Shown here: one piece after another, positions 18,876 through 42,341 of the stretch
Numbering within the stretch: the stretch's first letter is position 1
Layout: every line of letters begins with the position of its first letter
DNA from: an uncultured bacterium
GTDB taxonomy: Bacteria; Fidelibacterota; Marinisomatia; Marinisomatales; J089
Assembly (NCBI GenBank): GCA_964535735.1
Contig: CAZHTM010000003.1
Coordinates: 2,092 to 66,091 of the forward strand
DNA: 64,000 nt
Reading direction: 5' to 3'
Translations under genes and position numbers: made by a program
Notes under the pieces: model-generated
What the model was told of the DNA's origin: nothing
Databases searched by the model: none
What the model saw: only the letters and a program-made list of their open reading frames with translations

Positions 18876-18893
18876 TTGTGAAGATAGGTTCGA

Positions 18894-21372: not shown

Positions 21373-21620
21373 TAGATAATCCTTTTCAGGTTTAGTTTTT
21401 TAAATAATCGGTCCGACACATCGTCCGGAATACTTTCTTCCGTCTGGGTGACCCGATAGAGTTTGATGGTATCCTTGACACTATCTATAAAAATCCGACA
21501 CTCCGGGCATTCTTCCATGTATTTTCGCACTTCATCCACTACTTCCCGTTCATAATCTTCTCCCAGGTAGTCTTCAACCAGACGAATCATTTTTTCTTTA
21601 TGGTTCAAGAATGCATTCAT
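21372..21620 (-). CDS. putative cytoplasmic anti-sigma factor (zf-HC2-like, His replaced by Tyr)
   Basis: Overlaps the ECF sigma stop (ATGA). The pattern LVEDYLGEDYEREVVDEVRKYMEECPECR matches the anti-sigma N-terminal zinc-finger layout. No TM segment. Confidence 0.6.
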   Translation of the reverse strand: MNAFLNHKEKMIRLVEDYLGEDYEREVVDEVRKYMEECPECRIFIDSVKDTIKLYRVTQTEESIPDDVSDRLFKKLNLKRII

Positions 21621-22219
21621 GATAGTCCCTCAATGCACTTAAAATGATTGGCCAATTGGTCCCTTAAGAATAACCGGGCGCGCATCAATCTGACTTTGGT
21701 ATTGGCTTCGGAAATATTCAACAACTTAGCCGTTTCCCGCGTGGAAAGATTTTCCAAGTCCCGAAGGACAAATACGTCTTTATAATTTTCTGGTAACAAC
21801 GCCATAGCTTTGGCTAGACAATCCCGAAATTCTTTTTCATCAATTTTTTCTTCCAGGTGGTCGGGCCAGTCTTTGATATCAAATCCCCGCACATGTTCAA
21901 ATTCCGGATCATGAACAGAGATATAATTGTCCACATATTTCTTCTGGCGAAGTTTCCCCAGCGCCACGTTGGTGGCAATTCGGTATAACCAGGTATAAAG
22001 CGAGGACCGCTCGGAAAAAGTATCCAATTTTTTCAGCATAATCATAAAGGTTTCCTGAAGTACGTCCTCTGCATCCTCTCGATTATCCATTAATCGGCTG
22101 GCCAATGAGTAAATCCGTGCAGAATGCATATCTACAAGAATACTCATAGCATCTGCGTCACCCTCTTTGGCGCGCCGAATAAGTTCTGACTCTGGTATGT
22201 CCTGATTTGGAACCGTCAT
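21617..22219 (-). CDS. ECF (sigma-70 family, group 4) RNA polymerase sigma factor
   Basis: Region 2 (DAEDVLQETFMIMLKKL...YTWLYRIATNVAL) and region 4 (LPENYKDVFVLRDLENLSTRETAKLLNISEANTKVRLMRARLFLR). Confidence 0.9.
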   Translation of the reverse strand: MTVPNQDIPESELIRRAKEGDADAMSILVDMHSARIYSLASRLMDNREDAEDVLQETFMIMLKKLDTFSERSSLYTWLYRIATNVALGKLRQKKYVDNYISVHDPEFEHVRGFDIKDWPDHLEEKIDEKEFRDCLAKAMALLPENYKDVFVLRDLENLSTRETAKLLNISEANTKVRLMRARLFLRDQLANHFKCIEGLS

Positions 22220-22240
22220 CTAATTATTCTTGATAAACCA

Positions 22241-22260
22241 GGACCCCTTTGCAGGGGTCC
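22241..22260 (-). terminator. stem-loop downstream of the DUF4920 gene, upstream of the ECF operon
   Basis: ggacccct ttgc aggggtcc, a perfect 8-bp GC-rich stem. Weak U-tract on the minus strand (ugguuuau). Confidence 0.4.
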
Positions 22261-22303
22261 TTGGCTCAGTTCAATTGGATGAATATTCAAAGGTTTGGTT
22301 ACA

Positions 22304-22726
22304 TCAACTTTCAATGATCACACCACTTGCAATCATGGAATAGTTTGCCCGATCCTGTTCCGTACAGGACTCGCTGTGGTTCCCTTCTTCATGGTTATGT
22401 TTTATCACTTCGGTATGGAAGACGCCTTGAACCTTTACCGTCTTACCGCCGGCATCCTTGGGAACAAAGAACGCATAATCCTTAAAGCGAACCAAAAGGG
22501 TTTTCCCGTCGGCTTCCATAGATAACCAACATCCTTTTTCCTGACAGATTTCTTTTATAACGCCAGATACCAATATTTCTTTGGCATTGTATTGATCAGG
22601 ATGGTTCAGAACCTCCTGTACCTGAACTGCCTGATCCAAGGTTGGCGCTTCACCAAATACTTTCCCCCGTTCTTGTTGAGAACAGGCCATGAGGACAATC
22701 ACCATTGCCCACAGCACATGTTTCAT
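22304..22726 (-). CDS. DUF4920-like lipoprotein
   Basis: Start at the ATG at 22726 (ATGA overlap with the upstream gene). Lipobox LMAC. Core motif KEICQEKGCWLSMEADGKTLLVRFKDYAFFVPKD. Confidence 0.6.
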   Translation of the reverse strand: MKHVLWAMVIVLMACSQQERGKVFGEAPTLDQAVQVQEVLNHPDQYNAKEILVSGVIKEICQEKGCWLSMEADGKTLLVRFKDYAFFVPKDAGGKTVKVQGVFHTEVIKHNHEEGNHSESCTEQDRANYSMIASGVIIES

Positions 22727-23130
22727 TTGATTAGTCTCCTTTTTTTTGTCACAACAATAAACATCCAAATTCCCGTAATACTCAATATGCCTAAAGCCAA
22801 AGCCACTAAATCGTAATACAGAACTCCCGCTTCTCCAAATAAATCTCCTGAATGAAGGTCATATACAATCCAGGATAAAGGAACATACAACGTATTATTT
22901 GTAGGTAGTTTTTGTGCAGCCCGGGTTGCCAAAAGGCGATCGGTGTACTGGGTCGGTAACCATTTGGCCGGGATGCGACTGGTTTGCAGGAAATGAAAAT
23001 CGTTCTTATGCTCTAGTAATATCCCTGTTAGAGCAATAACAAATATAAACAGGGCTGATACCACGGTCAGCCAACGGAAATATCCTAGAATATTACGGTG
23101 CCAGATTCGCCAAGTTTTTAAAGACGCCAT
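22723..23130 (-). CDS. PepSY-associated TM-helix membrane protein
   Basis: WHRNILGYFRWLTVVSALFIFVIALTGILL and LHSGDLFGEAGVLYYDLVALALGILSITGIWMF patterns. Confidence 0.55.
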   Translation of the reverse strand: MASLKTWRIWHRNILGYFRWLTVVSALFIFVIALTGILLEHKNDFHFLQTSRIPAKWLPTQYTDRLLATRAAQKLPTNNTLYVPLSWIVYDLHSGDLFGEAGVLYYDLVALALGILSITGIWMFIVVTKKRRLIK

Positions 23131-23181: not shown

Positions 23182-24975
23182 CTAAAAAGGCCAAAAAACA
23201 GGCAATAAAATTGAAGCCATGATCCACAGGACAAACGCCAAAGGAAATCCAATTTTCAGGTAGTCGGAAAATTTATAGCCCCCCGGACCAAAAACCATCA
23301 TATTGGTTTGGTATCCTATGGGAGTTACAAAAGATGCGGAAGCGGCAAAACACACGGCAAAAATAAATGGTCGTGGATTGACCCCGAGGGCCGTGGCGGC
23401 CACTAAGGCAATAGGAGTCATAATAATCGCCGTCACTACATTGGAAGCCATCTCCGTGAGAATAACCGTTACCAAATAAACAAGGGCCAGAAGTAAATGG
23501 GGTTGCCAATTAACGGGGAATTTTCCCGTAATATCGGACAGAATCGTACCCAACGCGTGAGCCGTTCCCGTAGATTGAATGGCGAAACCCATGGGAATCA
23601 TGCTGGCAATTAATATAATCACCTGCCAATGAATCGACGCATAAGCTTCATTGGAGCCCAGCACCCGGAAAACCATGAGAAGAATCACCCCGATCAAGGC
23701 GCCTTCCACGATGGGCACCCACTGGAAGGCGGCCAGAATGACCACAGTGATAATGACAATGGGACTCAGCCACCAGTATCGGATTTTTTTCAAATCCGCA
23801 TCCATTTCCGCCATAACAATGAAATCATCACCCATGGCCAATTCATTCACTTTACTCCGTGATCCATACACCAATAGGGTATCGAAAGGTCGAATAATGG
23901 CGTGAGCGACTTTTCGGCGAAGGATATCCCCTTCCCGACGGATCGCCAAAACAAAACTCCCAAATCGACGTCGGAAGTTGGACTCCTTCAAACTCTTCCC
24001 TACTAAAGTGGATTTATCCGTTACGATGCATTCAATTAATACATTATCCGCCTGGACCAATTCTTTTTGGGTAAGTTTTTCATCCGTAAGGAGGGCAACT
24101 TTTTCAATGTCTTTCATTCGAATAAAATTATCCACGGTTCCGCGAACGAACAGGATATCACCTTCTTTTAGAATCGTGTTCCGAATGTTCGTGGTAATCA
24201 ATTCGTTATTCCTCTGGATGTCCAAAACGGTAATGTCATAGTTCTGGTTGATGCCTCGCTCTAGAATGGTTTTCCCGATTAACGGAGAATCTGCCGTCAC
24301 TTTCATTTCCGTTAAATACCCACCTAGATGGTAATTCCGGGTCAGACTTGAGGTTACGGTCCGGGAAGGGAGGAGCCGGTATCCAATAAACATAATGTAC
24401 ATTAGACCCAACACCAGTTGAATCAGCCCATACCGGGCGAATTCAAACATTCGCAGGGGCTCTAACTGGGACAATTCACCCAAAAGGGAATTCACTACTA
24501 AATTGGTGGACGTTCCAATCAAGGTAAGGGTACCACCGAGAATTGCAGCGTAACTCAAAGGAATTAACACTTTAGAGGGACTGATACGATACCGTTCCGC
24601 GAGCCGGATGGTCACCGGCATAAATATGGCCACTATGGCGGTATTATTGACGAATGCTGATGCAACCGCAATGGAAAGCAAATAGACCATCAGTCCCAAC
24701 ACTTTTGAATGTTGGACCAATTGATTGAGCCGAATGACCAGGTATTCCAGAACACCAGACTTCTGGAGCGCATGGCTCAGGATAAACAGCGCAGCAATAG
24801 TAATCACCGCCGGGTTTGAAAATCCGGATATAGCCTGTTCCGGGTTGACCAAGCCAGTGATCAGCAGAATTCCTAAAACCAATAATGCTGTCACATCGAT
24901 GGGCAACGCCTCCGTAACAAAGAGGACAAAAGCCATCAAAATGACGGCAAGAACGATGATCATTCCGATGGTCAT
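23182..24975 (-). CDS. SLC13/DASS-family anion transporter with two central TrkA-C (RCK_C) domains
   Basis: N- and C-terminal permease halves. Two approximately 70-aa RCK_C-like inserts (GKTILERGINQNYDITVLDIQR..., GKSLKESNFRRRFGSFVLAIRREG...). Confidence 0.8.
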   Translation of the reverse strand: MTIGMIIVLAVILMAFVLFVTEALPIDVTALLVLGILLITGLVNPEQAISGFSNPAVITIAALFILSHALQKSGVLEYLVIRLNQLVQHSKVLGLMVYLLSIAVASAFVNNTAIVAIFMPVTIRLAERYRISPSKVLIPLSYAAILGGTLTLIGTSTNLVVNSLLGELSQLEPLRMFEFARYGLIQLVLGLMYIMFIGYRLLPSRTVTSSLTRNYHLGGYLTEMKVTADSPLIGKTILERGINQNYDITVLDIQRNNELITTNIRNTILKEGDILFVRGTVDNFIRMKDIEKVALLTDEKLTQKELVQADNVLIECIVTDKSTLVGKSLKESNFRRRFGSFVLAIRREGDILRRKVAHAIIRPFDTLLVYGSRSKVNELAMGDDFIVMAEMDADLKKIRYWWLSPIVIITVVILAAFQWVPIVEGALIGVILLMVFRVLGSNEAYASIHWQVIILIASMIPMGFAIQSTGTAHALGTILSDITGKFPVNWQPHLLLALVYLVTVILTEMASNVVTAIIMTPIALVAATALGVNPRPFIFAVCFAASASFVTPIGYQTNMMVFGPGGYKFSDYLKIGFPLAFVLWIMASILLPVFWPF

Positions 24976-24986
24976 GACACCCGGAA

Positions 24987-26687
24987 TTAGTTCACCATAT
25001 CGACCTGGCCAGGATCTAGATAATCACTAGCATATTGTAAGTAGATCTTCTCCCTGACAAATACCTCAAACAGATCGGGATCAATATGGGCATCATTTTT
25101 CATGAAACCCAGAATGCGCATAGCCTCACTTAGTGTTTTCCCTTTTTTGTAAGGCCGGTCCCTGGCGGTCAGGGCCTCGAAGATATCGGCAATGGCCATA
25201 ATCCGAGCCTGGATGGACATTTCCTTTGCGGTGAGACCAAGCGGATAACCGGTACCGTCCATTTTTTCATGATGCCCACCGGCAAACTCCGGTACATGGC
25301 GGAGATGTTTTGGATAGGGCAGTTGGGTCAACATTTTAATAGTCTGAGTGATGTGATCATTAATCACTTTCCGCTCTTCATGGGTTAATGTTCCTCGGGC
25401 AATGAGAAGATTTTTTACTTCATCGTCATCCAGAAAAGGTTTCCGTTCTCCCCGATCCGTCCAACGGTAGCGTGCAATTTTTAAGACTCGGTCTTTTTTA
25501 TCCTGGCTCATGAATTCACCGCCAAAATTGGTCTCTTCCAGAAAGGCCATATCGTCCGATAATTTACGTAAACGCCGTTGATAGTTTTTACGGAGCCGAT
25601 GGAGTTCCTGGGCTTTTTCTTCTTTGGTTAATTCCGACTGTTTTTCCAGAGCCAATTGTTGTTTCAGAAAGCGGATTTCCGCATCGCGTTTCATGACTTC
25701 CATTCGGGTAGATACTGTATGAATTCGATCATAAATCGTTTCCAGCTTGGTGGCCTTATCCACAACATATTCCGGAGTGGTAACCTTCCCGCAATCGTGC
25801 AACCAGGCCGCGATCCTTAACTCATACATCTCACTATCCGTGAAATGGATGTCTTTAAAGGGACCTTCATCAATGTTATTAACAGCCTCCGCCAACATCA
25901 TCGTCAGCACCGGAACCCGCTCGCAATGGCCGCCTGTGTATTTTGATTTTGCATCGATGGCCGTGGCGATGAGTTTGATGAAGGATTCAAACAGCACCTC
26001 CAGATTTTTAATTAAATTTTTATTGGTGATGGCGACGGCCGCCTGAGAGGCCAACCCTTCAACCAAGCCCTGAATATCTTTGGAAAATGGTAAGGTTTCG
26101 CCCGTTCGGGGATGTTTGGCATTCAGGAGTTGAAGAACACCGATGATTTCATCTTCATGATTTTTCAGAGGAACCGTCAATAATGATTTGGATCGGTACC
26201 CTGTTTTGGAATCAAATGCTTTGGTTCCCGAGAAATCAAAACCTTCTTCTTCATACGCATCCTTAATGTTGACTGTTTCACCGGTTAATCCTACATAAGC
26301 GGCAACCATATTGACGTTAGGACTGCCATCTTCATTATATAATTTTACAGGATAAAATGGAATCGGTTTTCCGGAGGTACCACCCATGTGAAAATTCAAT
26401 GAGTCGGTCATCAATATTTCGAATCGGAGCCGATTGTCATCAGTCCGCATATATAAGGTACCACCGTCGGCATTGGATAGTTGTTTAGCCTCAACCAATA
26501 TCATTTCTAAAAGCTGGTTCATGTCCTTTTCACGGGATAAGGCCACACCGATCTCCGCATGTCGATGAATTCGATATTCTAACTCCCGAATATATCCCTT
26601 TACGGTATCGGGACAGTCTTCCACCATAGCATGGATTTCTTCCGGGGTCAATTTCAAATCCGATATAGATTTAGGTTTATGGTCCAT
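24987..26687 (-). CDS. GAF domain / HD-GYP domain protein (c-di-GMP phosphodiesterase type)
   Basis: Start moved to the ATG at 26687, with GAGGA upstream. HDCGK and HHEKMDGTGYPLG motifs. GAF-like N-terminal half and a coiled-coil insert. Confidence 0.85.
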   Translation of the reverse strand: MDHKPKSISDLKLTPEEIHAMVEDCPDTVKGYIRELEYRIHRHAEIGVALSREKDMNQLLEMILVEAKQLSNADGGTLYMRTDDNRLRFEILMTDSLNFHMGGTSGKPIPFYPVKLYNEDGSPNVNMVAAYVGLTGETVNIKDAYEEEGFDFSGTKAFDSKTGYRSKSLLTVPLKNHEDEIIGVLQLLNAKHPRTGETLPFSKDIQGLVEGLASQAAVAITNKNLIKNLEVLFESFIKLIATAIDAKSKYTGGHCERVPVLTMMLAEAVNNIDEGPFKDIHFTDSEMYELRIAAWLHDCGKVTTPEYVVDKATKLETIYDRIHTVSTRMEVMKRDAEIRFLKQQLALEKQSELTKEEKAQELHRLRKNYQRRLRKLSDDMAFLEETNFGGEFMSQDKKDRVLKIARYRWTDRGERKPFLDDDEVKNLLIARGTLTHEERKVINDHITQTIKMLTQLPYPKHLRHVPEFAGGHHEKMDGTGYPLGLTAKEMSIQARIMAIADIFEALTARDRPYKKGKTLSEAMRILGFMKNDAHIDPDLFEVFVREKIYLQYASDYLDPGQVDMVN

Positions 26688-26854
26688 CGTTATTCCTCTG
26701 GTCTGCTTAACATAACTTAAACACGTAGGAAGGGTCCAGGAAAGATAATCTACGCTCCCTGATTTTTGAAAGGACAATAGAAATCTATTAATCCTCAGTT
26801 TCTTCAAAAAAACATTTGCATCAATTCGGTATTTTATCCAAATATTGCAGACCA

Positions 26855-26935
26855 ATGTTGCAATCAAAACAACTTCATTCCTCCATTAGTCAGATCCTGA
26901 CCTGGAACTGGCTCCCCTGGCCCGGCCGGGCCTAA
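26855..26935 (+). promoter_or_regulatory. candidate Trp-codon-rich leader peptide ORF upstream of trpB2
   Basis: Hand translation: MLQSKQLHSSISQILTWNWLPWPGRA*. Three TGG codons fall within six codons, 98 nt upstream of the TrpB2 start. No clear Shine-Dalgarno. Confidence 0.3.
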
Positions 26936-27032: not shown

Positions 27033-28391
27033 ATGAGTACAACCAAAATTTTACTCAGCGAAAACGACTTACCAAAAAGTTGGTATAATCTGGCGGCCGA
27101 TCTTCCGTCGCCCCCACCCCCGTCACTCCATCCCGGGACCAAGCAACCCATCGGTCCAGAAGATCTGGCTCCCCTCTTTCCCATGGAACTCATCCTACAG
27201 GAAGTGAGCACCGATCCCACTATTCCAATTCCATCGGAAGTACTGGAAGCGCTTTCCCTGTACCGCCCCACGCCGCTGATTCGCGCCCGACGTCTGGAAG
27301 CGGCATTGGACACGCCAGCGAAAATCTATTTCAAATACGAAGGCGTAAGTCCCACGGGAAGTCATAAACCCAATACCGCTATCGCTCAGGCCTATTACAA
27401 TCAAAAGGAAGGCGTGAAACGGTTAACTACAGAAACCGGGGCTGGACAATGGGGCAGCTCGCTGGCTTTTGCTGCCGGCCTTTTCGGACTGGAATGTAAA
27501 GTCTACATGGTCAGAATCAGCTACGAACAAAAGCCCTACCGCAAGGCGCTCATTGAAACGTATGGCGCGGAAATTCTTCCCAGTCCCAGTCCTACAACAC
27601 AGGCGGGAAGAGCCATTTTGGAAAAAGACCCCGACTCGCCAGGTAGTCTGGGGATCGCTATCAGTGAAGCCGTGGAAGAAGCTGCCAGCCGGGAGGACAC
27701 AAAATACTCCCTGGGATCGGTCCTGAATCACGTTTTGCTTCATCAAACCATCATTGGACAGGAAGCTCAAAAACAAATGGAATTGGCTGGGGATTATCCT
27801 GATGTCGTGATTGGATGCGTCGGTGGAGGATCCAATTTCGCCGGCCTGGCCTTTCCCTACATACGTGAGAAAATCCATGGAAAGGACATTGACTTTCTGG
27901 CCGTGGAGCCGGCCTCATGTCCCACGCTCACCAAGGGAGAATTGCGCTACGATTTTGGCGACACAGCCGAACTGACACCGTTAACCCAAATGTACACCCT
28001 GGGGCATCAGTTTGTCCCGGCGGCCATCCACGCCGGTGGACTTCGGTACCATGGCAGCGCTGCTTTAGTTTCCCAGCTGTTGAAAACCGGCTTGATTCGA
28101 GCGGAGGCGTATACGCAACTCAAAACCTTCGAATCGGCGCTCCTGTTCGCCCGGACAGAAGGCATTGTTCCGGCGCCAGAATCAGGCCACGCTGTTCATG
28201 CCGCTATTAAAACCGCTCGGTTGGCCCGGGAAGAAGGAAAGGAAAAAACCATCCTCTTTAATCTTTCAGGTCACGGATATTTTGATATGTCCGCTTACAC
28301 CAATTTCCTGGCTGGAAATTTAGTGGATCACGAAATGACCGACGAGGATGTAAAAGCCAGTTTAGCTAAACTGGAGGCCCTTCCCGTTTAA
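27033..28391 (+). CDS. trpB: tryptophan synthase beta chain, TrpB2 (type 2) subfamily
   Basis: AGGAG RBS. TrpB2-type N-terminus [16 protein letters not shown]-lysine context [16 protein letters not shown] loop. Confidence 0.9.
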
Positions 28392-28472: not shown

Positions 28473-31400
28473 ATGCATTCCCTGTTAAAATCCATATCCG
28501 ATCGGTTACTGGCAACCCCATCGGCGTCTCCAGATGATATTAAAGCCGCCGTTCAGCACCTTCTTGATCACGGCGCTACCGAAACCATCCATGAATTTCT
28601 TGATTGGGGACATTTACCGGAAGTCAACCAGGCTCTCGCCAAAGCCCACCTTGGAACCGCCTGGGTCCATCTCATCGCTCAAGCAATTGAGAAATCAGGC
28701 TATACGGTTGCTCATCTGCTTCGTCAGCGCGTGGAACGCTATGGAGATAAACCCTTCTTCCAGACCGTTAAGGGCAATCGAATCACCGCCTATTCCTATC
28801 GGGAAATCGCCGAAAAAATTCACCATATCCAGGGTTGCTTGTTGGCGTCTCAATCCCCGGATCACCCGTTAGTTGTGGGATTGTACACTCCCAATCGACT
28901 GGAGGCGGCTTGTGTTGATCTGGCTTGTTTGGGAGCGGGTATTCGTGTCATTCCTCTGCCCGCCAATTCTTCCCCTTCCCAATTGGAATATATCCTGCAC
29001 CATGCGGCCATTAACCTGGTATTTGTGGGTGGTACTGAGACCGTGACGACCCTCCGTGAAACCCGTTTAACCGGCGACCAGAGTTGGATACGATTTCCTG
29101 GAACTCCGGACCTGCCGGTGACCAGCCAATCCTGGGAAGATTTCAATTCTCTGAAGCCCTATACGGGTCCCAATCCCCATCCGACCGATCCAAACCTTGC
29201 CACGATTCTTTACACCTCCGGTACTACGGATACACCCAAAGGAATTGTTTTTTCCCAAGTGGCCATGCTCACGAAACGTTTTGCCCGCGCCGTGGCGTTG
29301 CCGGGCATTAGCTCGAAAGATAGCTTCCTGGCCTATTTACCTCTTTATCACACCTTCGGTCGCTTTTTCGAAATGATGGGGACACTCTTTTGGGGCGCTA
29401 CGTATACTTTTGCCGAATCCCCAACCTTTAAAACTCTTCTTTCGGAATTTTCCCTTGTAAGACCCACGGTCTTTATTTCCATTCCAAAGCGCTGGGTCCA
29501 ACTCTATGAACAAGTACGGAATACGGATTCTTTCGATCAGGGCCGGGACAAGGATATTCAGCGTTTCCTTAAAAAACTGACAGGTGGACGCCTGACCTGG
29601 GGCTTATCGGCGGCGGGCTACCTGGACCCGGACATTTTTGAATTTTTTCAGCACCACAACATCCACCTCCTGTCCGGATATGGAATGACGGAAGCCACCG
29701 GTGGTATTACCATGACGCCACCGGACGATTATGTTCGTAATTCCGTAGGTATCGCGCTGCCGGGATTGGATGCCAAGCTGGGCTCTGACGGTGAACTGTG
29801 CATTCGCGGTCCCTATGTTTGCCAGTTTTATTATGGAGATCCTCTCCAGCCAACGCACCAGGACGGCTGGTTCCACACCGGCGATATTTTTGAAGAAAAG
29901 GACGGTCACTATTTTATCGTGGATCGTAAAAAAGATATCTATAAGAACAGTCGCGGGCAGACCATTTCGCCGCAAAAAATTGAAAATCTGTTTCAGGATT
30001 TCGAACCTATTCGACGAGTGTTTCTGGTTGGGGATGGTTTGGAATTCAATACGGTCCTGATTTACCCCAATCCGGAATACTATTTCCCGGAAGACATGGC
30101 GGGGAATGAATCGGAACGACGGGAGTTCTTTAGTTCTCTTATTCAGTCAGTGAATAGCTTTTTAGCGCCCTTCGAACGAATTGTGAATTTTGCACTCATT
30201 GACCGGGATTTTTCCGAAAAAGCTGGTGAGCTTACCCGAAAAGGCACCTATAAACGAAAAGTGATTCTGGAGCATTTCAGCCATGTCATTGAACCCATGT
30301 ATGCCCGGAATTACCTGCCCTTCATTGTTGGACAATACGAACTACAAATTCCCAATTGGCTCACGCGGGAATGGGGCATCACCCGCTCGGAAATTACTTG
30401 GGATGGTGACATTCTTAAGGTCCGAGACCGAACCCTAAAGGCACATCTTATCCCTGATAAAAACATGATCCAATTAGGCAACTTTGATTATGAACTTTCC
30501 AGGGAAACCATTGATTTAAATGCCCTTATCGCCGCACCGGAATTATGGGTAGGAAATCACGCTTTGGTGCAATTTTTAGACAACGCTCTTTTTCGGATCC
30601 GAACCTTTGAATCCTGTACGTCTATTCTCCTGAAAAAAGATCATCTTCCCTTCACCCAAGGCGAACCTGAGTTTGATACGCATACGCCCTCTTCCTGGTT
30701 GGGTAAACTTCACCACTTGGCCTGTCAGTGCTTTTCGTCGAAAGAGGACACTGTTCTCACGGCCTTGAGCGCTCTGCAATCCCTCCTAAATGATAAGGAT
30801 CAGGATCGGAGACGGTTAATTGTTCCGGTTCTCATACGATGTCGCCTCCACCCTGCTCCAACGGTACGGGAATTTGCACTGAATGCCGTCCTTCCTTATC
30901 TTGACGGTAACGAATTTTTATCCGCTTTATTGGACACTTTGTCTCTTCCCCATTCCAGCGATCCATCGGAGATAACTATTGATATCGCAAAAATGAATGC
31001 GGACCAATTTCATGCAATTTTATCCTACCTTGATTCTCTTCGATCTTCCTACCACGAATCCCCTATAGAAAACCGGCAGGAACTTATCTTTCTATTACGC
31101 CTCCTGAGTCGCTATGGAAGCATCCACCCCATTGGGTTTCGATGGATTCGATCGGAATTGGTGTGGTGGCATCTTGTCTCAGGAGACCCTGAATTCCAAA
31201 AGGTAGCCAAAACTGAATTGGACGGCTTAACGCAGCAATTTCGGCAGTGGCTTGGGACGCCCCAACAGGTGGCTATCGATCCCGAAACCGGAGAGGAGAT
31301 AACCTGGAAGGACGTTGTTCTCTTCGATGAGCATATTGACGATCAAACCCAAACTCACTTGCTTAAACTTTTTTCCACCACCCAGGCGATTTCCGAAGCA

Positions 31401-33029
31401 GTATTCCTATTCACCGGGAAACAGATGATTCGGCTTGAGGATATTGCCCCAAAAGGTATTTGGGTGTCGTATTTGGGCACCAATTATCAAAAAAGCGTTT
31501 TCCGTATATTGATTCAAACCCATTCTACCGAAGCCTACAATCTGGTCATCAACATCAATGAAGGACTCTCAACGTCCCGATTTGAAGAGGAAACCAGTTG
31601 GTTGATATTGATGAGTACAATGCATCACGGGTCACGCCTGGTGGAAATGTTTGGAGGATATTGGCCTGAATTCCAGCTTTATACCGAAGAATATATTCCA
31701 GGGGAGACGGTCCGCCAGTATCTGGAAGTCAACCGCAAAGAAATTGCTTCCCGCACCAACCCGGACCGCTGGCGTATGCGCTGGCTTCACTTTATCTGGA
31801 ATGGAGCCATGGCCTACGTGGAATTCTGGCGCCGTTCCGGCTTTACCCTGGGTTTTCAAGAGCCTACTACCGATAATTTGATCATTCCCGTGTATGATTA
31901 CACTACCGGCACCCGACTGATCTCCATCACCAATCGTTCTACCCTGACGTCACTCTTGGAATTGCTGGTGCGGATTTATCAGCATTTCATCCTGAAAACC
32001 GAGCGTGATTTTCAGGGACTTCAACGAATGGCGGACTGGGAAATCCTGCTCACGGCGGCGACGCAACGCCTCTCCGTAAAGGGAGCGTTTATACACTTTG
32101 AAAATATAATTCGGAATTGGGATCAACTCCCGGAATCGTCAGAGGCGCAGACCTTAGGGCTAACACCGGACAGACTCCGTCGCTTCATGTCCGACGTGGA
32201 ATCGGAAGGCGTACTCACAAAGCCAGTGGTTTTTGCTTCCCTGCGTTATGAGCGTTGGCTGCAATTGAACCCTGACGCCACCCGGGAAGCACGGGGATCG
32301 TTATTAAAGGAACTTTATAACGATTATCATCTGGCCAATTTGCTAGAGGACTATCCAGAAACACGGATTCGATTTTTTCTCATGACCTGTTTTAAAAATT
32401 CCGCGCCAAAGATCCAGTCTGATTTGTATGAGTTACAAAAGGCCCTTCGCTCCCGGTCCATTAGTCTGGAAGAACTGGATATCCAGCTTACACGCATCCA
32501 ACAAAATTCAGATTTGTCAGAGGATGATGCCTATTTCCTCAGTCGACTCCTGTTTGAACATTTGGAGTCCACTGAACAGGGTGAGTTAATTACCTGGGAT
32601 TGGGGTGCCCAAAATCGATTGGATTTGATTACCGCCGTAGAAGATTTGTCGGGAAATCAATACCAGATTCGTCCCCCGTTCCAGCCCAAAGAAATCGCTC
32701 ATTTTCACGCCCTTTTGCAGGTCTCCAACTTTAATCCCGTATTTCGCCAAGAACATCAGTTTCTGTTAATTTTTAATAGCAATCGGGTTGTGGTCGGGGG
32801 CGTGTACTGGAAACCCACCTCCATTAATACGGCCTATATCGAACGTATCGTGATCTCTCATCGCTATCGAAAACAGCATCTAAGCACGCGCCTTCTGGAG
32901 GAATTATTTAACCGTTTGCGGGACCGGAGTTATCAATACATCACCGTAGGGTTTTTCCAGGCTGGCCTGTTTTATAAACTGGGATTTACTGTCAATAAAA
33001 AATTCGGCGGTTTGGTCAAACCGCTGTAA
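28473..33029 (+). CDS. 1,518-aa fusion protein: AMP-forming acyl-CoA ligase domain, approximately 750-aa unassigned region, C-terminal GNAT-like acyltransferase domain
   Basis: Adenylation motifs YTSGTTDTPKG, SGYGMTEATGG, WFHTGDIF, DRKKDIYKNSRGQTISPQKIE, GELTRKGTYKRK. C-terminal GNAT-like IERIVISHRYRKQHLSTRLLEELFNRL...FYKLGF. One uninterrupted frame. Confidence 0.8.
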   Translation: MHSLLKSISDRLLATPSASPDDIKAAVQHLLDHGATETIHEFLDWGHLPEVNQALAKAHLGTAWVHLIAQAIEKSGYTVAHLLRQRVERYGDKPFFQTVKGNRITAYSYREIAEKIHHIQGCLLASQSPDHPLVVGLYTPNRLEAACVDLACLGAGIRVIPLPANSSPSQLEYILHHAAINLVFVGGTETVTTLRETRLTGDQSWIRFPGTPDLPVTSQSWEDFNSLKPYTGPNPHPTDPNLATILYTSGTTDTPKGIVFSQVAMLTKRFARAVALPGISSKDSFLAYLPLYHTFGRFFEMMGTLFWGATYTFAESPTFKTLLSEFSLVRPTVFISIPKRWVQLYEQVRNTDSFDQGRDKDIQRFLKKLTGGRLTWGLSAAGYLDPDIFEFFQHHNIHLLSGYGMTEATGGITMTPPDDYVRNSVGIALPGLDAKLGSDGELCIRGPYVCQFYYGDPLQPTHQDGWFHTGDIFEEKDGHYFIVDRKKDIYKNSRGQTISPQKIENLFQDFEPIRRVFLVGDGLEFNTVLIYPNPEYYFPEDMAGNESERREFFSSLIQSVNSFLAPFERIVNFALIDRDFSEKAGELTRKGTYKRKVILEHFSHVIEPMYARNYLPFIVGQYELQIPNWLTREWGITRSEITWDGDILKVRDRTLKAHLIPDKNMIQLGNFDYELSRETIDLNALIAAPELWVGNHALVQFLDNALFRIRTFESCTSILLKKDHLPFTQGEPEFDTHTPSSWLGKLHHLACQCFSSKEDTVLTALSALQSLLNDKDQDRRRLIVPVLIRCRLHPAPTVREFALNAVLPYLDGNEFLSALLDTLSLPHSSDPSEITIDIAKMNADQFHAILSYLDSLRSSYHESPIENRQELIFLLRLLSRYGSIHPIGFRWIRSELVWWHLVSGDPEFQKVAKTELDGLTQQFRQWLGTPQQVAIDPETGEEITWKDVVLFDEHIDDQTQTHLLKLFSTTQAISEAVFLFTGKQMIRLEDIAPKGIWVSYLGTNYQKSVFRILIQTHSTEAYNLVININEGLSTSRFEEETSWLILMSTMHHGSRLVEMFGGYWPEFQLYTEEYIPGETVRQYLEVNRKEIASRTNPDRWRMRWLHFIWNGAMAYVEFWRRSGFTLGFQEPTTDNLIIPVYDYTTGTRLISITNRSTLTSLLELLVRIYQHFILKTERDFQGLQRMADWEILLTAATQRLSVKGAFIHFENIIRNWDQLPESSEAQTLGLTPDRLRRFMSDVESEGVLTKPVVFASLRYERWLQLNPDATREARGSLLKELYNDYHLANLLEDYPETRIRFFLMTCFKNSAPKIQSDLYELQKALRSRSISLEELDIQLTRIQQNSDLSEDDAYFLSRLLFEHLESTEQGELITWDWGAQNRLDLITAVEDLSGNQYQIRPPFQPKEIAHFHALLQVSNFNPVFRQEHQFLLIFNSNRVVVGGVYWKPTSINTAYIERIVISHRYRKQHLSTRLLEELFNRLRDRSYQYITVGFFQAGLFYKLGFTVNKKFGGLVKPL

Positions 33030-33159
33030 GTCTCCAATCTCCGGCGCTCGGGAATGAGGAGTGCGTGGTGGATTGGTGGGCGGTCATCGCTTTCCTCTTT
33101 GAAGGTTAAATTAATTTCTCAGTATAACCATGCACAAAATAACATATACCTTCCAGCGT

Positions 33160-33195
33160 GTCGAAGCCTGACGTATGTACACGTCACATTTCGAC
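33160..33195. other. nested palindrome GTCGAA-gcc-TGACGT-atgtac-ACGTCA-cat-TTCGAC
   Basis: Two concentric perfect 6-bp inverted repeats, read directly from the sequence in a non-coding gap. Confidence 0.5.
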
Positions 33196-33293
33196 TTGGC
33201 TCAATGGGACTGGTTTGGAAGTCGGGGTTTGGAATAATCAGATCTTCAATTTTCGATGTTCAATCGTCAACGCCCCGGCTCCCATCAACATAC

Positions 33294-33326
33294 AAAAAAA
33301 AGCGCCATCCTTAGTTGGACGGCGCT
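33294..33326 (-). terminator. rho-independent terminator of the 115-aa orphan gene
   Basis: Minus strand reads agcgccgtccaactaaggatggcgct followed by tttttttt. Confidence 0.7.
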
Positions 33327-33351
33327 TTGAATCCGTTTCTGAAAGAAACGA

Positions 33352-33936: not shown

Positions 33937-34019
33937 TACCGGGGAAGGGACTCGAACCCTCACGCCTTTTGGGCACCAGATCCTAAATCTGGCGTGTCTG
34001 CCAATTCCACCACCCCGGT
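33937..34019 (-). tRNA. tRNA-Leu (anticodon UAG), class II with long variable arm
   Basis: Hand-folded cloverleaf. Acceptor ACCGGGG/CCCCGGT. D stem GTG/CAC. Anticodon stem CCAGA/TCTGG with loop TTTAGGA. Variable stem GCC/GGC. T arm GAGGG-TTCGAGT-CCCTT. CCA is not encoded. Confidence 0.9.
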
Positions 34020-38421: not shown

Positions 38422-38859
38422 TTATTCGGCGGTATCCCGGTGCTGATAATCCTTGTAAACCGCATCCAGAATGCCATTTACAAAAGCAGAGCTCTCTTCC
38501 GTACTATATTCCTTGGCAATTTCAATGGCCTCGGCAATTGACACTTTGGGAGGAACATCTTTTACGAAATAGATTTCGATAATTGCCATTTGCAGAATAA
38601 GACGATCCAGAAGTGCTACTCGTTCATAATCCCAGTTCTGTAAATGGTGTTTGATGGTTTCTTCTACCCAGGAATGGTGCTCAACCACCAGCGTTAATAC
38701 TTGCTGAACGTAGTCCCGGCTGGGACGCTCGAAGGAATAGCGCTCCCATAAATCGTGGATGACTTTGGTTACCGGTTCATCACTGATTTCCAGAGCGTAT
38801 AAGCCCTGGAAAACAGCAACGCGCGCCTGTCGCCGGGGATGCGGTTTACTTGTGGTCAC
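38422..38859 (-). CDS. nusB: transcription antitermination factor NusB
   Basis: RRQARVAVFQGLYALE N-terminus and AIEIAKEYSTEESSAFVNGILD C-terminal motif. Confidence 0.9.
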   Translation of the reverse strand: MTTSKPHPRRQARVAVFQGLYALEISDEPVTKVIHDLWERYSFERPSRDYVQQVLTLVVEHHSWVEETIKHHLQNWDYERVALLDRLILQMAIIEIYFVKDVPPKVSIAEAIEIAKEYSTEESSAFVNGILDAVYKDYQHRDTAE

Positions 38860-39952
38860 GCTTTGACATGGGGTTCTGACGCGGTAAATAGATATTTTTT
38901 AACCGGGCCAAGGCCTCCATCCGTTTTTCAGCGACTCGATTGGCGGCGATATAGGTGGCGATATTTTCATCTTCCGCCAAGGTGAAGATGGTCATCAGGG
39001 TGTCATAGATACCTTCGGTTTGTTTGAAGGCGCGTTCCCGATTATATCCTTCCATTTCATTGGCCACGTTAATGAGTCCCCCACCGTTGATGGCATAGTC
39101 CGGAGCATAAAGGATATTTTTTTCTGCCAACTTGGGTCCCTGCACGGATTCGTTTTCCAACTGATTGTTCGCAGCTCCGGCAATAATCGAACACTTCAAT
39201 CTTTCCAGGGTATCGTCGTTAATGGTGGCGCCCAATGCACAGGGAGCATAAATATCCATATCCGCATCGTAAATCTCATCGGGTTCCACGACGTCCGCCC
39301 CAAATTCATTTGCCGCCGTTTTCAGCGCATCTTTGTCCACATCGGTCACCACTAACTTGACACCGTCTTTGTATAAATTCTTACAGAGGTTAAATCCCAC
39401 ATGGCCTAACCCCTGGATACCTACCGTCAGACCCGCGAGAGAATCTTTTCCTGTGGCTTTCTTCACGGCTGCTTTCATCCCCACGTACACGCCGTAGGCT
39501 GTGACGGGAGAGGGGTCACCACTGCCTCCCAAAGCGCGGGAAATTCCCGTAACGTAACGGGTCTCCATTCGCACCCATTCCATATCCTTAACACTGGTCC
39601 CCACGTCTTCCGCCGTGATATACCGTCCACTGAGGCCTTCCACAAAACGACCGAATGAACGGAACAATAATTCCGATTTATCTGTTTTGGAATTTCCAAT
39701 AATAACCGACTTCCCACCCCCTAAATTCAAATTGGCGATGGCGGCTTTATACGTCATTCCTCGGGATAACCGCAATACGTCCCGCAGGGCGTCTTCTTCC
39801 GTAGTATAAGGAAACATACGGCAACCACCCAGGGCCGGGCCGATGGTAGTATCATGAATGGCAATTATGGCTTTCAAGCCGGAATTTTCATCATTACAAA
39901 AAACCACTTCTTCGTGGCTGCGTTTTTCCATAGCCTCAAATACTGCAGGCAT
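38846..39952 (-). CDS. leucine (branched-chain amino acid) dehydrogenase
   Basis: Near-collinear with Bacillus LeuDH: GLKAIIAIHDTTIGPALGGCRM, GLNLGGGKSVIIG, ITAEDVGT, GSGDPSPVTAYGVY. Confidence 0.88.
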   Translation of the reverse strand: MPAVFEAMEKRSHEEVVFCNDENSGLKAIIAIHDTTIGPALGGCRMFPYTTEEDALRDVLRLSRGMTYKAAIANLNLGGGKSVIIGNSKTDKSELLFRSFGRFVEGLSGRYITAEDVGTSVKDMEWVRMETRYVTGISRALGGSGDPSPVTAYGVYVGMKAAVKKATGKDSLAGLTVGIQGLGHVGFNLCKNLYKDGVKLVVTDVDKDALKTAANEFGADVVEPDEIYDADMDIYAPCALGATINDDTLERLKCSIIAGAANNQLENESVQGPKLAEKNILYAPDYAINGGGLINVANEMEGYNRERAFKQTEGIYDTLMTIFTLAEDENIATYIAANRVAEKRMEALARLKNIYLPRQNPMSKRDHK

Positions 39953-40011
39953 AATCTTCCTCCAATTTAGAATGTTGGTTTAGGTGTCTCATTGTCATCC
40001 CAAGGACACCG

Positions 40012-41154
40012 TTAGTCTTTTAAAAGTTCACGGGCAATGACCAATTCCTGAATCTCAGACGTTCCTTCATAAATCTGAGTAATTTTTGCGTCCCGCATGA
40101 GACGCTCAACCCCAAATTCCTGCATATATCCATAGCCCCCGTGAATTTGCACACACTCCCGGGAGGCATCCATTGCGGTCTGAGATGCGAATAATTTGGC
40201 CATGGCCGCTTCTTTTTGGTACGGTTGATGATGATCTTTTAGAAAAGCGGCTCTGTGAATTAGAAGTCGTGCCGCGTCTACGTTCGTCCCCATCCGGGCA
40301 ATTTTACTCTGGATGGCGCCAAACTCCGCCAGGGTTTTTCCAAACTGTTTCCGTTCTTTCGCATACGAAATACTGTGATCCAGGGCGGCTTGTGCGATGC
40401 CCAATGCCTGAGCGGCAATACCGATCCGGCCTCCGTTTAGTGTTTTCATGGCGATTCGGAAGCCGTCCCCTTCTTTTCCAATGAGATTTTCTGCCGGAAC
40501 CCGGCAATTTTCGAAATACAATTCGCAGGTGTCCGATCCGCGAATACCCAGCTTATTTTCTTTTTCTCCTGTGGTGAAGCCGGGCGTTCCTTTTTCAACA
40601 ATAAAAGCGGAAATCCCTTTATACCCTATCCCTTTGGTGGTTAAACAGAATAAAATGACCACCTGGGAATTGATTCCGTTCGTCACCCAATTTTTTGTAC
40701 CGTTGATGATATAATGATCACCATCTTTTTGAGCAAAGGTACGCATGTTGCTGGCATCGGAACCGGATTGGGGTTCCGACAGGCTGAAACCGCCGATCCA
40801 TTCCGCCGTGGCTAATTTAGGTAAATAGCGCCGCTTTTGGTCCTCGTTGGCCCAATCCAGGAAAATTTGAATCACCAGGGAATTATTGACCGACATCACC
40901 ACCGCGGCGGAAGCATCCACCCGCGCAATTTCTTCCATCGCGATCACATAGCTTATGGCGTCCATTCCAGCGCCGTTCCACTTCTCCGGCGTCATGATGC
41001 CCATAAAACCCAATTCACCCATCATTTTTATCTGTTCCGCCGGGAAAACGGCTTTTTCATCTCGCTCAATTACCCCTGGTGCCAGGTGATCCCGGGCGAA
41101 CTCACGAGCGGTTTGGCGAACCAGTTCCTGTTCCGGAGTTAAAGTAAAATCCAT
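40012..41154 (-). CDS. acyl-CoA dehydrogenase (short/branched-chain type)
   Basis: Start at the ATG at 41154 (MDFTLTPEQE), overlapping the thiolase stop. Also GFSLSEPQSGSDA, QIHGGYGYMQEFGVERLMRDAKITQIYEGTSEIQ. Confidence 0.9.
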   Translation of the reverse strand: MDFTLTPEQELVRQTAREFARDHLAPGVIERDEKAVFPAEQIKMMGELGFMGIMTPEKWNGAGMDAISYVIAMEEIARVDASAAVVMSVNNSLVIQIFLDWANEDQKRRYLPKLATAEWIGGFSLSEPQSGSDASNMRTFAQKDGDHYIINGTKNWVTNGINSQVVILFCLTTKGIGYKGISAFIVEKGTPGFTTGEKENKLGIRGSDTCELYFENCRVPAENLIGKEGDGFRIAMKTLNGGRIGIAAQALGIAQAALDHSISYAKERKQFGKTLAEFGAIQSKIARMGTNVDAARLLIHRAAFLKDHHQPYQKEAAMAKLFASQTAMDASRECVQIHGGYGYMQEFGVERLMRDAKITQIYEGTSEIQELVIARELLKD

Positions 41155-42341
41155 CAGTACGTCTCCACAATCACGGCTGAGGCTTCGCCACCGCCGATGC
41201 ACAAAGTTGCCAATCCATAACGAACCTTTAACCGCTGCATGGCATGAATCAGCGTTACTAAAATTCGGGCGCCGCTGGCCCCGATGGGATGTCCAAGGGC
41301 GATGGCCCCGCCATGTACATTTACCTTTTTCGGGTCCAGATTGAAATTATCAATCGCTGCCATGGTGACTGGGGCAAAGGCTTCATTGATTTCCCAAAGA
41401 TCGATTTGATCCGGGGTAAGATTGGCTTTTTTCAAACATTTTTCTATCGCGATAATCGGAGCGGTAGTAAACCACTCGGGCTCATGCGCGCCACTGGCCT
41501 GCGCCACTATGCGTACCAACGGTTTCAAACCCTGGGCTCTCGCTTCGACCTCACTCATGACCACCAACGCCGCTGCCCCATCATTAATTTTCGAGGCATT
41601 CGCAGCGGTAATTGTCCCGTCCTTTTGAAATGCCGGACGGAGGTGGGGAATTTTTTCGAATTTCGCTTTTCCCGGTTCTTCGTCCTGATCTACTACCCGG
41701 GGATCGCCTTTTCGGACCGGAACCGTGACCGGAACCAATTCATCAGCAAACCATTGTTCCTGTTGAGCCCGTTGCGCCCGGGTGTAAGATTCTACTGCAA
41801 AAGCATCCTGAGCTTCCCGGGAATAGTGTCGATCCGTGGCGCACAATTCCGCACAATTTCCCATGTGTTGATTGGTATACACATCCCAAAGACCATCGTG
41901 AATCATGCTGTCAATCATTTGTCCGTGCCCCATTCGGTATCCCGTGCGCGCTTTGGGGAGGAGATAAGGAGCCAGGGACATATTTTCCATACCCCCTGCC
42001 ACCACGCAGGTGGCATCTCCAACCTGGATAGCCTGTGTGGCCAACATAACGGCCTTCAGCCCGGAGCCACACATTTTATTGATGGTCAGACATTCAACAG
42101 CTAAGGGTAGTTCGGCGCGAATCGCAGCTTGACGGGCGGGCGCTTGTCCCAATCCAGCGGGCAAGACATTGCCCATGATCACCTCATCTACCTGGTCCGG
42201 CGATACCCCACTGCTGTCAACGGCAGCCCGGATCGCGGTGGCTCCCAGTTCGGGAGCCGGAATTGTAGATAAAGAGCCTTGAAAAGAACCTACCGGCGTT
42301 CGCCGGGCGGATAGAATAACAACGGTGTTAAGTGATGACAT
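41154..42341 (-). CDS. acetyl-CoA C-acetyltransferase (thiolase II)
   Basis: Active-site contexts INKMCGSGLKAV, NVHGGAIALGHPIGASGARIL, CIGGGEA. Confidence 0.92.
   Translation of the reverse strand: MSSLNTVVILSARRTPVGSFQGSLSTIPAPELGATAIRAAVDSSGVSPDQVDEVIMGNVLPAGLGQAPARQAAIRAELPLAVECLTINKMCGSGLKAVMLATQAIQVGDATCVVAGGMENMSLAPYLLPKARTGYRMGHGQMIDSMIHDGLWDVYTNQHMGNCAELCATDRHYSREAQDAFAVESYTRAQRAQQEQWFADELVPVTVPVRKGDPRVVDQDEEPGKAKFEKIPHLRPAFQKDGTITAANASKINDGAAALVVMSEVEARAQGLKPLVRIVAQASGAHEPEWFTTAPIIAIEKCLKKANLTPDQIDLWEINEAFAPVTMAAIDNFNLDPKKVNVHGGAIALGHPIGASGARILVTLIHAMQRLKVRYGLATLCIGGGEASAVIVETY

Follow-up and report, generated by a model that had tools for sequence, protein, structure and literature searches.

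A widely conserved giant bacterial protein joining an AMP-forming ligase to a Gcn5-type GNAT through a predicted pseudokinase

We analysed a stretch of 64,000 nucleotides (nt) from an uncultured bacterium of the Fidelibacterota (Marinisomatales, lineage J089; GenBank assembly GCA_964535735.1, contig CAZHTM010000003.1, positions 2,092 to 66,091 of the forward strand), hereafter the window, and one giant gene within it. The gene encodes a real, widely conserved and uncharacterised bacterial protein of 1,518 residues. An adenosine monophosphate (AMP)-forming ligase occupies its N-terminal part, a Gcn5-type GNAT its C-terminus, and about 750 residues between them include a predicted pseudokinase. 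All of the folds are individually known; the combination, the ~750-residue module without a family model and a genomic linkage to citrate synthase are new. Our preferred but tentative reading is that the protein could acylate lysines of other proteins with an acyl-coenzyme A (acyl-CoA) donor of its own making.

Reading frame, family and distribution

The sequence-only reading of this DNA had described one uninterrupted frame, and the open reading frame (ORF) and its translation bear this out. The frame runs from an ATG at 28473 to a stop at 33027-33029, with an alternative TTG start 6 nt upstream of the ATG at 28467, and its G+C content is even throughout (0.45-0.53). A near-identical protein, P0001, is encoded on a 72-kb JGI contig. 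When the whole protein was used in a word-indexed protein search, more than 100 clusters of 1,490-1,550 amino acids (aa) were found at 43-67% identity and full coverage, originating from Marinimicrobia, Fidelibacterota and FCB-group metagenome-assembled genomes. Their database names are generic only ('GNAT family N-acetyltransferase' or 'long-subunit acyl-CoA synthetase/GNAT').

An exhaustive HMMER search with residues 611-1390 as the query extended the family to ~300 representatives, down to ~20% identity. Nearly all of them are 1,470-1,710 aa long and match at ~620-1450, and cluster look-ups assigned distant ones to Ignavibacteria, Bacteroidota and Acidobacteriota. We then scanned one genome per species with a full-length alignment as the profile (A3; 17 sequences, 25-43% identical to the window protein). 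At least 584 relatives were detected, and the best 80 loci were retrieved. In all 80 the match extends without a break to the final residues of the query; it begins no later than residue 68 in 76 of them and at residues 241-285, at a contig end, in the other four. The loci belong to Marinimicrobia, Calditrichota, KSB1, Ignavibacteria/Melioribacteraceae, Bacteroidota, Gemmatimonadota, Acidobacteriota, Eisenbacteria and Anaeromyxobacter, the last including the cultured A. terrae SG22. Domain order and length are thus fixed across 80 loci of at least 584 matching genomes, in at least eight named lineages.

These results contradict the earlier suggestion of a possible assembly join. We reject a fusion of separate ligase, unknown and GNAT genes by assembly or read-through, leaving it next to no probability: more than 100 protein clusters share the order and length (about 1,490-1,640 aa), the middle region alone as query finds its match nearly always at the same place, the 80 best loci come from independent assemblies that include complete chromosomes and a cultured strain, composition along the ORF is even, and the inter-domain junctions are conserved among relatives in the family alignments. 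No split forms of the architecture were found among the relatives checked. Two shorter 'middle+GNAT' proteins of ~900-1,000 aa (P0121 and P0155) both begin at base 1 of their contigs and are therefore fragments, not split genes. By Rosetta-stone logic, a fixed order and length without split forms links both catalytic ends of the protein.

The gene had been proposed as part of an undescribed system. This stands insofar as no characterised member was found, and no description of an AMP-forming ligase-pseudokinase-GNAT architecture was found in the literature; the architecture itself, however, is common and phylogenetically broad rather than rare. The published scheme of bacterial lysine acetyltransferases comprises enzymes with a nucleoside diphosphate (NDP)-forming-ligase-like domain and a GNAT (types I and II), enzymes with a small regulatory domain and a GNAT (type III), and GNAT-only enzymes (PMC6456759). 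The type considered here is absent from that scheme (PMC6456759).

In what follows, residue counts out of 72 refer to a family alignment of 72 sequences (25-50% identity) divided into near, mid and far identity groups, with the mid and far groups under 40%. The window's clade comprises 119 aligned sequences, and the set of related loci 84.

The AMP-forming ligase region

Both parts of an AMP-forming ligase score far above their Pfam cut-offs, AMP-binding (PF00501) with 184 bits versus 29.9 and its C-terminal subdomain (PF23562) with 41.4 versus 20.8. Together they run from residue 84 to 612 and agree with the ligase motifs previously read in the first ~610 residues. The core motifs comprise the P-loop YTSGTTDTPKG (motif A3, 247-257), GYGMTE (A5, 402-407), TGD (A7, 469-471, just past the Pfam match), the hinge DRKKDIYK (A8, 484-491) and the probable A10 lysine, K590. 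Residues T248, S249, G250, K256, G402, T406, E407, T469, G470 and D471 are invariant in alignment A3, and the adenylation and thioesterification residues checked, K256, E407, D471, R485, K590 and R595, are each retained in 71-72 of the 72 family sequences. The segment GELTRKGTYKRK, earlier pointed out as an A10-like lysine region, corresponds to residues 585-596; it contains the conserved K590 (71/72) and R595 (72/72), and K590 is the probable A10 lysine by its place in the motif. Judged by these motifs, the ligase domain looks catalytically competent.

The nearest solved relatives are the adenylation domains of carboxylic acid reductases (6oz1, E 6.5e-27; 5msp, E 6.6e-25), followed by luciferases and FadD enzymes. 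NCBIfam models of FadD11 and of carboxylic acid reductase reach residue 611-613. No NCBIfam ligase model attained its curated cut-off (the best, PRK06187, scored 167 versus 476 bits; FadD11 scored 158 versus 950), and since all scores fall far short, the ligase is placed in no named subfamily. Carboxylic acid reductases load a phosphopantetheine arm; no carrier domain was found by Pfam in the window protein. The Gly of GYGMTE occupies what we take, from the sequence, to be the position of the pocket-closing Trp of acetyl-CoA synthetase. A Gly at this gating position argues for a substrate larger than acetate, and the pocket looks suited to a medium- or long-chain acid, or one otherwise larger than acetate.

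The GNAT domain and its CoA loop

A GNAT-like fold at the C-terminus had been suggested from the sequence, and both Pfam and structural comparison agree with it. Acetyltransf_1 (PF00583) matches residues 1420-1505 (E 4.1e-7, 30.7 bits versus a cut-off of 20.7), Acetyltransf_10 and Acetyltransf_7 match as well, and the GNAT models together span ~1401-1506. PF00583 is matched by all 12 diverse family members examined. Foldseek recovered Gcn5 (target-normalised TM-score ~0.6, root-mean-square deviation (rmsd) 3-3.5 Å), PatZ, YhbS and HP0935, and the family profile matched Tetrahymena GCN5 (E 3.5e-10) through the C-terminal G-x-[VI]-K segment. The best relatives of this domain in sequence and structure are protein acetyltransferases, namely Gcn5/PCAF, PatZ and HP0935.

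The unusual CoA loop reported earlier (RYRKQHLS) is real but confined to the window's clade. There the loop is mostly R-K-K/R-D/H-L-S, and position 1469, a Gly in only a few of the 119 sequences, is otherwise mostly D, H or N. Other clades carry a canonical R-x-x-G-x-G/S/A, with G1469 in 25/27 and 34/38 sequences (59/65 together) and in 60/72 family-wide. An acidic residue at position 1457 is kept in 67 of the 72, and in the window's clade E1457 and L1470 are both invariant (119/119). As far as the alignments tell, the atypical loop is a derived state of the window's clade only, and the GNAT looks catalytically competent in most of the family outside that clade.

Four predicted domains in the middle region

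The ~750 residues between ligase and GNAT had been described as matching nothing. This holds at the level of families, as neither the window protein nor any of 11 diverse relatives has a Pfam match above threshold there, but AlphaFold2 resolves the region into four predicted domains. The family sequence profile, compared with Protein Data Bank (PDB) chains, matched GNATs and left the middle without a match beyond weak ones to designed helical-repeat proteins. A model of residues 611-1518 built from a 55-sequence alignment (mc045c1a5ac6c) has a mean predicted local distance difference test score (pLDDT) of 86.5 and a predicted TM-score (pTM) of 0.76. A pTM of this value over 908 residues indicates that the C-terminal ~900 residues form one compact predicted body, in which, according to the model, the four domains pack rigidly with the GNAT.

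The first of them is rich in beta strands (fragment residues 4-71, pLDDT 85-93) and bears the motifs IPNW..RE.G and P.LW.GN; P627, W629, G669, Y673 and N695 are invariant or nearly so, and neither a sequence nor a Pfam match was found for this domain. It is followed by a HEAT-like repeat of nine helices (fragment residues 132-317), for which Pfam gave sub-threshold matches to TPR_Trm732_C, HEAT and HEAT_2 and for which the profile search gave the weak designed-repeat matches. The third domain is kinase-like. The fourth, a helical bundle (helices 241-379 of model mf49a0acf7047, pLDDT >90), carries the conserved motifs FA..RY.RW..LNP.AT and YPE.R.RFF.

The kinase-like domain was modelled as residues 982-1365 alone (mf49a0acf7047) with a pLDDT of 94.1 and a pTM of 0.91. 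Foldseek against the PDB returned 87 matches with E<=1e-3, of which the best 50 are all protein-kinase-like and comprise kinases, pseudokinase domains and small-molecule phosphotransferases. The best superpositions are with PRPK/Bud32 (6wqx; target-normalised TM-score 0.58, rmsd 5.2 Å over 229 columns) and Rio2 (1zar; 0.45). The stretch at nt 31490-31940 (residues ~1007-1157), singled out before for its kinase-like spacing, indeed lies within this confidently predicted fold. Reading residue equivalences from the order of secondary-structure elements, we placed the hinge at EEYIPGET (1072-1079), the 'catalytic loop' at QEPTTDN (1129-1135) and S1151 at the place of the DFG Asp. Position 1130, equivalent to the HRD Asp, is variable (D in 17/72), and the DFG-Asp position holds a conserved Ser (61/72). 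Other landmarks are retained, among them the beta3 basic residue R1011 (64/72), the catalytic-loop Asn N1135 (58/72) and D1142 in the beta7-beta8 turn (63/72).

It had been noted that the canonical Lys, HxD and DFG residues were lacking. For the two aspartates this is correct, but all 119 sequences of the window's clade have a Lys/Glu pair, K1007/E1040; it is kept in 24/27 and 23/27 sequences, respectively, at 29-40% identity and lost in the most distant group. A reciprocal decay of the GNAT loop and this pair, considered at one stage, was withdrawn once the family was split into three identity groups. With the HRD and DFG aspartates missing, the kinase-like domain is therefore a predicted pseudokinase. 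An active kinase is rejected on the conservation of these residues; canonical phosphotransfer would not be possible, while binding of a ligand or nucleotide is possible on the residues retained. A 'sensor' role for the domain is a guess.

Bud32/PRPK and RIO kinases resemble this domain in their minimal core, made of the N-lobe sheet, alphaC, the hinge and a short catalytic-loop region. They hydrolyse adenosine triphosphate (ATP) and retain the metal-binding Asp together with the catalytic Lys, Asp and Asn, whereas the window protein has a variable HRD-Asp position and a Ser for the DFG Asp. No sequence-level match of the kinase-like region to Bud32 or RIO was found by Pfam in 12 members or by the PDB profile search.

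With the 908-residue model, Foldseek against the PDB returned PI3K/PIKK proteins first, followed by PRPK/Bud32, ordinary kinases and many GNATs. VPS34, ATM, mTOR and SMG1 share with the model the order of a helical solenoid followed by a kinase fold (E ~1e-4, 580-646 columns), but they superpose poorly on it (TM 0.13-0.31, rmsd 16-22 Å). PI3Ks are not among the best 50 of the 87 matches of the kinase-only model, and neither PI3K catalytic motifs nor a Pfam PI3_PI4_kinase match was found in 12 members. We therefore reject membership in PI3K/PIKK on the poor superposition and the kinase-only matches. The predicted structure is a minimal protein-kinase-like fold preceded by a solenoid, and its resemblance to PI3K/PIKK is architectural only.

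Linkage to citrate synthase

Of the 84 related loci, L063 and L068 had no called ORF for the giant gene; when the neighbouring genes of the other 82 were clustered, citrate synthase (PF00285, E 3.9e-95) was the only neighbour family that recurred across phyla. Counted by tblastn in all 84 loci, citrate synthase lies within ~5 kb of the giant gene in 27, and within ~650 nt in 21 of the 26 with a measurable distance. For comparison, a rough chance estimate, which is not corrected for phylogeny, puts a given single-copy gene of a 3-4 Mb genome inside a 16-kb window at ~0.5%. Citrate synthase adjoins the gene in L030, L034, L035, L041-L045, L049, L052, L057-L060, L066, L068, L070-L073, L075, L076 and L084.

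The linkage extends over at least five named phyla in three arrangements. In Ignavibacteria, Bacteroidota, Eisenbacteria and one Anaeromyxobacteraceae genome, citrate synthase lies upstream of the giant gene on the same strand. Acidobacteriota, one Cytophagia genome and three of the six Gemmatimonadota loci have it downstream in convergent orientation; the remaining three Gemmatimonadota loci have it downstream on the same strand (at 4.5 kb in L051). Three different arrangements argue for selection over inherited synteny alone.

A possible self-charging protein acyltransferase and its alternatives

We suggest, as a possible rather than a probable reading, that the protein is a lysine acyltransferase that makes its own acyl-CoA donor. 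The N-terminal ligase would activate a free carboxylic acid with ATP to give acyl-CoA; the acyl-CoA would be passed in cis to the C-terminal GNAT, and the GNAT would then acylate an amine, in the likeliest case a lysine on a docked protein. HEAT-like repeats and pseudokinases are typical protein-docking modules, and the rigid assembly of beta domain, HEAT-like repeat, pseudokinase and helical bundle could form the docking platform. The pseudokinase would perform no phosphorylation and might act as a docking or allosteric ligand-binding element. Possible targets include enzymes of the acetyl-CoA/citrate node and perhaps the protein's own ligase. Overall, the protein would be a functional analogue of large Pat/YfiQ in which a live AMP-forming ligase replaces a dead NDP-forming-ligase-like domain. 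We favour this reading because the ligase motifs are kept, the GNAT loop is canonical in most of the family, the C-terminal part is predicted to be one compact body, and citrate synthase is linked to the gene. Coupling of a GNAT to a ligase has a precedent in the stable AcuA-AcsA complex of B. subtilis (PMC11255334).

Several observations weigh against this reading. The acidic residue at 1457 aligns two positions off the catalytic Glu of Gcn5, and with the CoA-loop Gly replaced in the window's clade, the GNAT of the window protein may have weakened or altered acyl-CoA binding; this replacement is the chief ground for caution about its activity. The usual donors of Gcn5-type GNATs are acetyl or short acyl groups, whereas the ligase is, by its sequence relatives, of the fatty-acid/carboxylic-acid-reductase type. 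The citrate synthase linkage is absent in the window and in Calditrichota and was seen in one of ~20 Marinimicrobia-type loci (L062, at 3.3 kb).

A built-in off-switch, one of the two mechanisms proposed earlier from the sequence, is a first alternative, which we consider doubtful. Here the GNAT would use cellular acetyl-CoA to acetylate the protein's own A10 lysine, K590, in cis, gated by a ligand on the pseudokinase/HEAT module. Acetylation of the A10 lysine by a GNAT is an established way to shut down AMP-forming ligases (PMC6456759, PMC11255334), and AcuA and AcsA form a stable 1:1 complex (PMC11255334). Retention of K590 (71/72) fits this scheme, as does the adjacency of citrate synthase, which would suit feedback control of acyl-CoA/acetyl-CoA supply. 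However, a catalytic regulator fixed 1:1 with its substrate would be unusual, and ~750 conserved residues seem too much for a tether. The context of K590 (T-[PR]-K-G-T) differs from the P-x4-G-K of Pat substrates, no deacetylase gene was linked to the giant gene among the clustered loci (82/84), and the window's clade has a degenerate CoA loop.

In line with the other earlier proposal, a one-polypeptide 'activate then N-acylate' machine, the protein could also be a small-molecule synthase that activates an acid and then N-acylates an amino acid, an amine or a lipid head group, with the amine held in the dead kinase cleft. The ligase is nearest to activators of fatty and aryl acids (FadD11, long-chain models, carboxylic acid reductase adenylation domains), and the Gly that we place at the gating-Trp position of acetyl-CoA synthetase points the same way. 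The kinase-like model also aligns over ~400 columns with methylthioribose kinase (2pun) and corramycin phosphotransferase (8agy), but these superpositions are poor (rmsd 16-18 Å, TM ~0.3). Precedents for the parts exist in mycobactin FadD33/MbtK and in the GNAT-kinase fusion AAC(6')-APH(2''). On the other side, the GNAT matches Gcn5-type protein acetyltransferases; among 12 members the scoring models were Acetyltransf_1, 7, 10, 9 and CG, and no OlsB or N-acyl-amino-acid-synthase Pfam model was found. The protein lacks a membrane segment, its neighbourhood shows no conserved lipid, biosynthetic or export genes, and the gene behaves as a syntenic core gene beside housekeeping genes rather than as part of a biosynthetic cluster. 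On balance we regard N-acylation of a small molecule as unlikely, to the same degree as the off-switch.

We give a rather low probability to a plain acyl-CoA synthetase with a large non-catalytic tail, in which pseudokinase and GNAT would sense CoA, acyl-CoA or nucleotide as product feedback. Such a protein would mirror the non-catalytic ligase-like domain of Pat. The absence of the HRD and DFG aspartates is consistent with it, as is the GNAT of the window's clade, which has lost the Gly yet remains constrained at E1457 and L1470, and the K1007/R1011/E1040 constellation could still bind a phosphate-bearing ligand. Outside that clade, however, the canonical CoA loop and the acidic beta4 residue have been kept over very long divergence, as is expected of an active transferase. 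A small remainder of probability falls outside all of these readings.

Comparison with known systems

The closest analogue of a self-charging acyltransferase is Pat/YfiQ/PatZ (class I-alpha; PMC6456759), which is also large and multidomain, with a single C-terminal GNAT and an N-terminal domain related to acyl-CoA synthetases. Pat is linked to the control of acyl-CoA metabolism, and the GNAT region of our model aligns with liganded E. coli PatZ (9it0). The big domain of Pat, however, is related to NDP-forming enzymes, has another fold and is non-catalytic, whereas the window protein has an AMP-forming ANL ligase with intact catalytic motifs. Pat lacks a HEAT-like repeat and a pseudokinase and shows no sequence similarity to the window protein outside the GNAT. 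No CoA_binding, succinyl-CoA ligase or ATP-grasp Pfam domains were found in the window protein, which sets it apart from class I-alpha.

In AcuA-AcsA (PMC11255334), Pat/Acs and mycobacterial PatA/FadD, a GNAT is coupled to an AMP-forming ligase and acetylates its A10 lysine. These are separate proteins without a kinase-like module, and their ligases are acetyl-CoA synthetase or FadD enzymes with the ordinary type of C-terminus, whereas the window protein is one polypeptide. FadD11-type enzymes (COG1022) and carboxylic acid reductases have the ANL fold and the extended C-terminal subdomain PF23562 in common with the window protein, but they terminate at ~600 aa or go on into carrier and reductase domains, with no pseudokinase-GNAT tail. 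AAC(6')-Ie/APH(2'')-Ia is a single polypeptide that combines a GNAT with a kinase-fold domain; both act on aminoglycosides, and there is no ligase. In the mycobactin system FadD33-MbtL-MbtK, a fatty-acid-activating ANL enzyme feeds a GNAT N-acyltransferase; these are separate proteins and involve a carrier protein.

Features and neighbouring genes in the window

Coordinates are collected in Table 1. Upstream, the TrpB-like gene lies next to the giant gene in the window and, of the other loci examined, in L001 alone; it is therefore probably no functional partner, and we reject it as an operon partner. The genes for the GAF+HD_5 protein, the transporter and the sigma-factor cluster have syntenic counterparts in Marinimicrobia loci L002-L004. 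Most Marinimicrobia carry the GAF-HD gene 40-400 nt from the giant gene in divergent orientation, accompanied by the CitMHS transporter. HD/GAF genes were also seen 1.6-3.6 kb away in a few Calditrichota and Gemmatimonadota loci. We treat this neighbourhood as lineage synteny in Marinimicrobia, scattered elsewhere.

Downstream, the order is hairpin, convergent 115-aa ORF, transfer RNA (tRNA) gene, PLP enzyme of Cys/Met metabolism and SecA. The 86-aa ORF that runs into the hairpin is probably not a gene; for it and for the 115-aa ORF neither a Pfam match nor a match in the 84 related loci was found. The scan placed the hairpin on the minus strand; it likely ends both convergent transcription units, so that the plus-strand giant gene would use it as well. 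The tRNA gene is the sole Rfam match in the 64-kb window. Farther on, beyond SecA and NusB and 6-9 kb downstream of the giant gene, ORFs at 38846-42341 on the minus strand resemble by eye a Glu/Leu-type dehydrogenase, an acyl-CoA dehydrogenase and a thiolase; in L001, Pfam identifies an acyl-CoA dehydrogenase and a thiolase at the matching relative place (16810-19145).

Several Ignavibacteria loci (L033, L035, L045, L046, L048, L054, L061 and L072) have a lineage-specific block downstream of the gene (positions +1 to +6). It codes for proteins of ~243 aa (esterase-like by eye), ~207 aa (a membrane protein that by eye resembles PAP2/sphingomyelin synthase) and ~112 aa, together with a coiled-coil protein of ~1,050 aa.

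Table 1. Coordinates of the giant gene, its domains and its neighbours in the window (PLP, pyridoxal 5'-phosphate; ECF, extracytoplasmic function)
Feature	Position (nt)	Strand	Residues or size	Basis or remark
Whole gene	28473..33029	+	1,518 codons plus stop	
AMP-binding large domain	28722..29834	+	84-454	Pfam PF00501, E 4.9e-54
Ligase small C-terminal domain, FadD11/carboxylic-acid-reductase type	29949..30308	+	493-612	PF23562 (AMP-binding_C_3), E 2.2e-10
Probable A10 catalytic lysine	30240..30242	+	K590	position in motif
Beta-rich domain	30312..30632	+	~614-720	model strands and motifs
HEAT-like helical repeat	30696..31253	+	~742-927	helices in model
Protein-kinase-like fold, predicted pseudokinase	31443..32114	+	~991-1214	model mf49a0acf7047 and Foldseek
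Helical bundle between kinase-like fold and GNAT	32136..32552	+	~1222-1360	helices in model
Gcn5-type GNAT	32577..33026	+	~1369-1518	Pfam PF00583, PF13673, PF13508; AlphaFold2 strands; Foldseek
Degenerate CoA pyrophosphate-binding loop, after beta4	32868..32885	+	R1466-K-Q-H1469-L-S1471	compared with consensus R/Q-x-x-G-x-G/A
TrpB-like PLP enzyme	27033-28391	+	452 aa	PF00291; 81 nt upstream of the giant gene
GAF+HD_5 (HD-GYP-type) protein	24987-26867	-		syntenic with Marinimicrobia loci
CitMHS/TrkA_C transporter	23182-24975	-		syntenic with Marinimicrobia loci
ECF sigma/DUF4920/PepSY cluster	21617-23130	-		syntenic with Marinimicrobia loci
ORF running into hairpin	33054-33314	+	86 aa	
GC-rich hairpin with T-run, between giant gene and convergent 115-aa ORF	33299..33328	.	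12 bp	consensus scan
tRNA gene, between 115-aa ORF and Cys/Met-metabolism PLP enzyme	33937-34019	-		Rfam RF00005, 55 bits

Significance

Reversible lysine acylation in bacteria is known mainly through Pat/YfiQ, AcuA and GNATs gated by cyclic AMP or amino acids, drawn largely from Proteobacteria, Firmicutes and Actinobacteria. The gene described here is found in hundreds of species of Marinimicrobia, Bacteroidota/Ignavibacteria, Gemmatimonadota, Acidobacteriota and Anaeromyxobacter. Even if it encodes an ordinary self-regulated fatty-acid ligase, ~750 conserved and confidently folded residues currently have no family model. The protein would also offer a widespread example of a bacterial pseudokinase inside a metabolic enzyme. 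If the self-charging reading is true, a conserved, single-copy-looking gene would define a new class in which a live acyl-CoA synthetase is joined to a Gcn5-type GNAT via a pseudokinase. The path from free acid to acyl-CoA to protein acylation would then run within one polypeptide and wire a metabolite directly to a modification; the citrate synthase link makes this a concrete, testable hypothesis. In its widest form, which we put forward with considerable doubt, this would be a new class of protein acyltransferase that couples acid availability to lysine acylation of enzymes such as the adjoining citrate synthase, with the pseudokinase/HEAT platform selecting targets or sensing nucleotide, and it might serve as the equivalent of Pat in the FCB group, Acidobacteriota, Gemmatimonadota and some Myxococcota.

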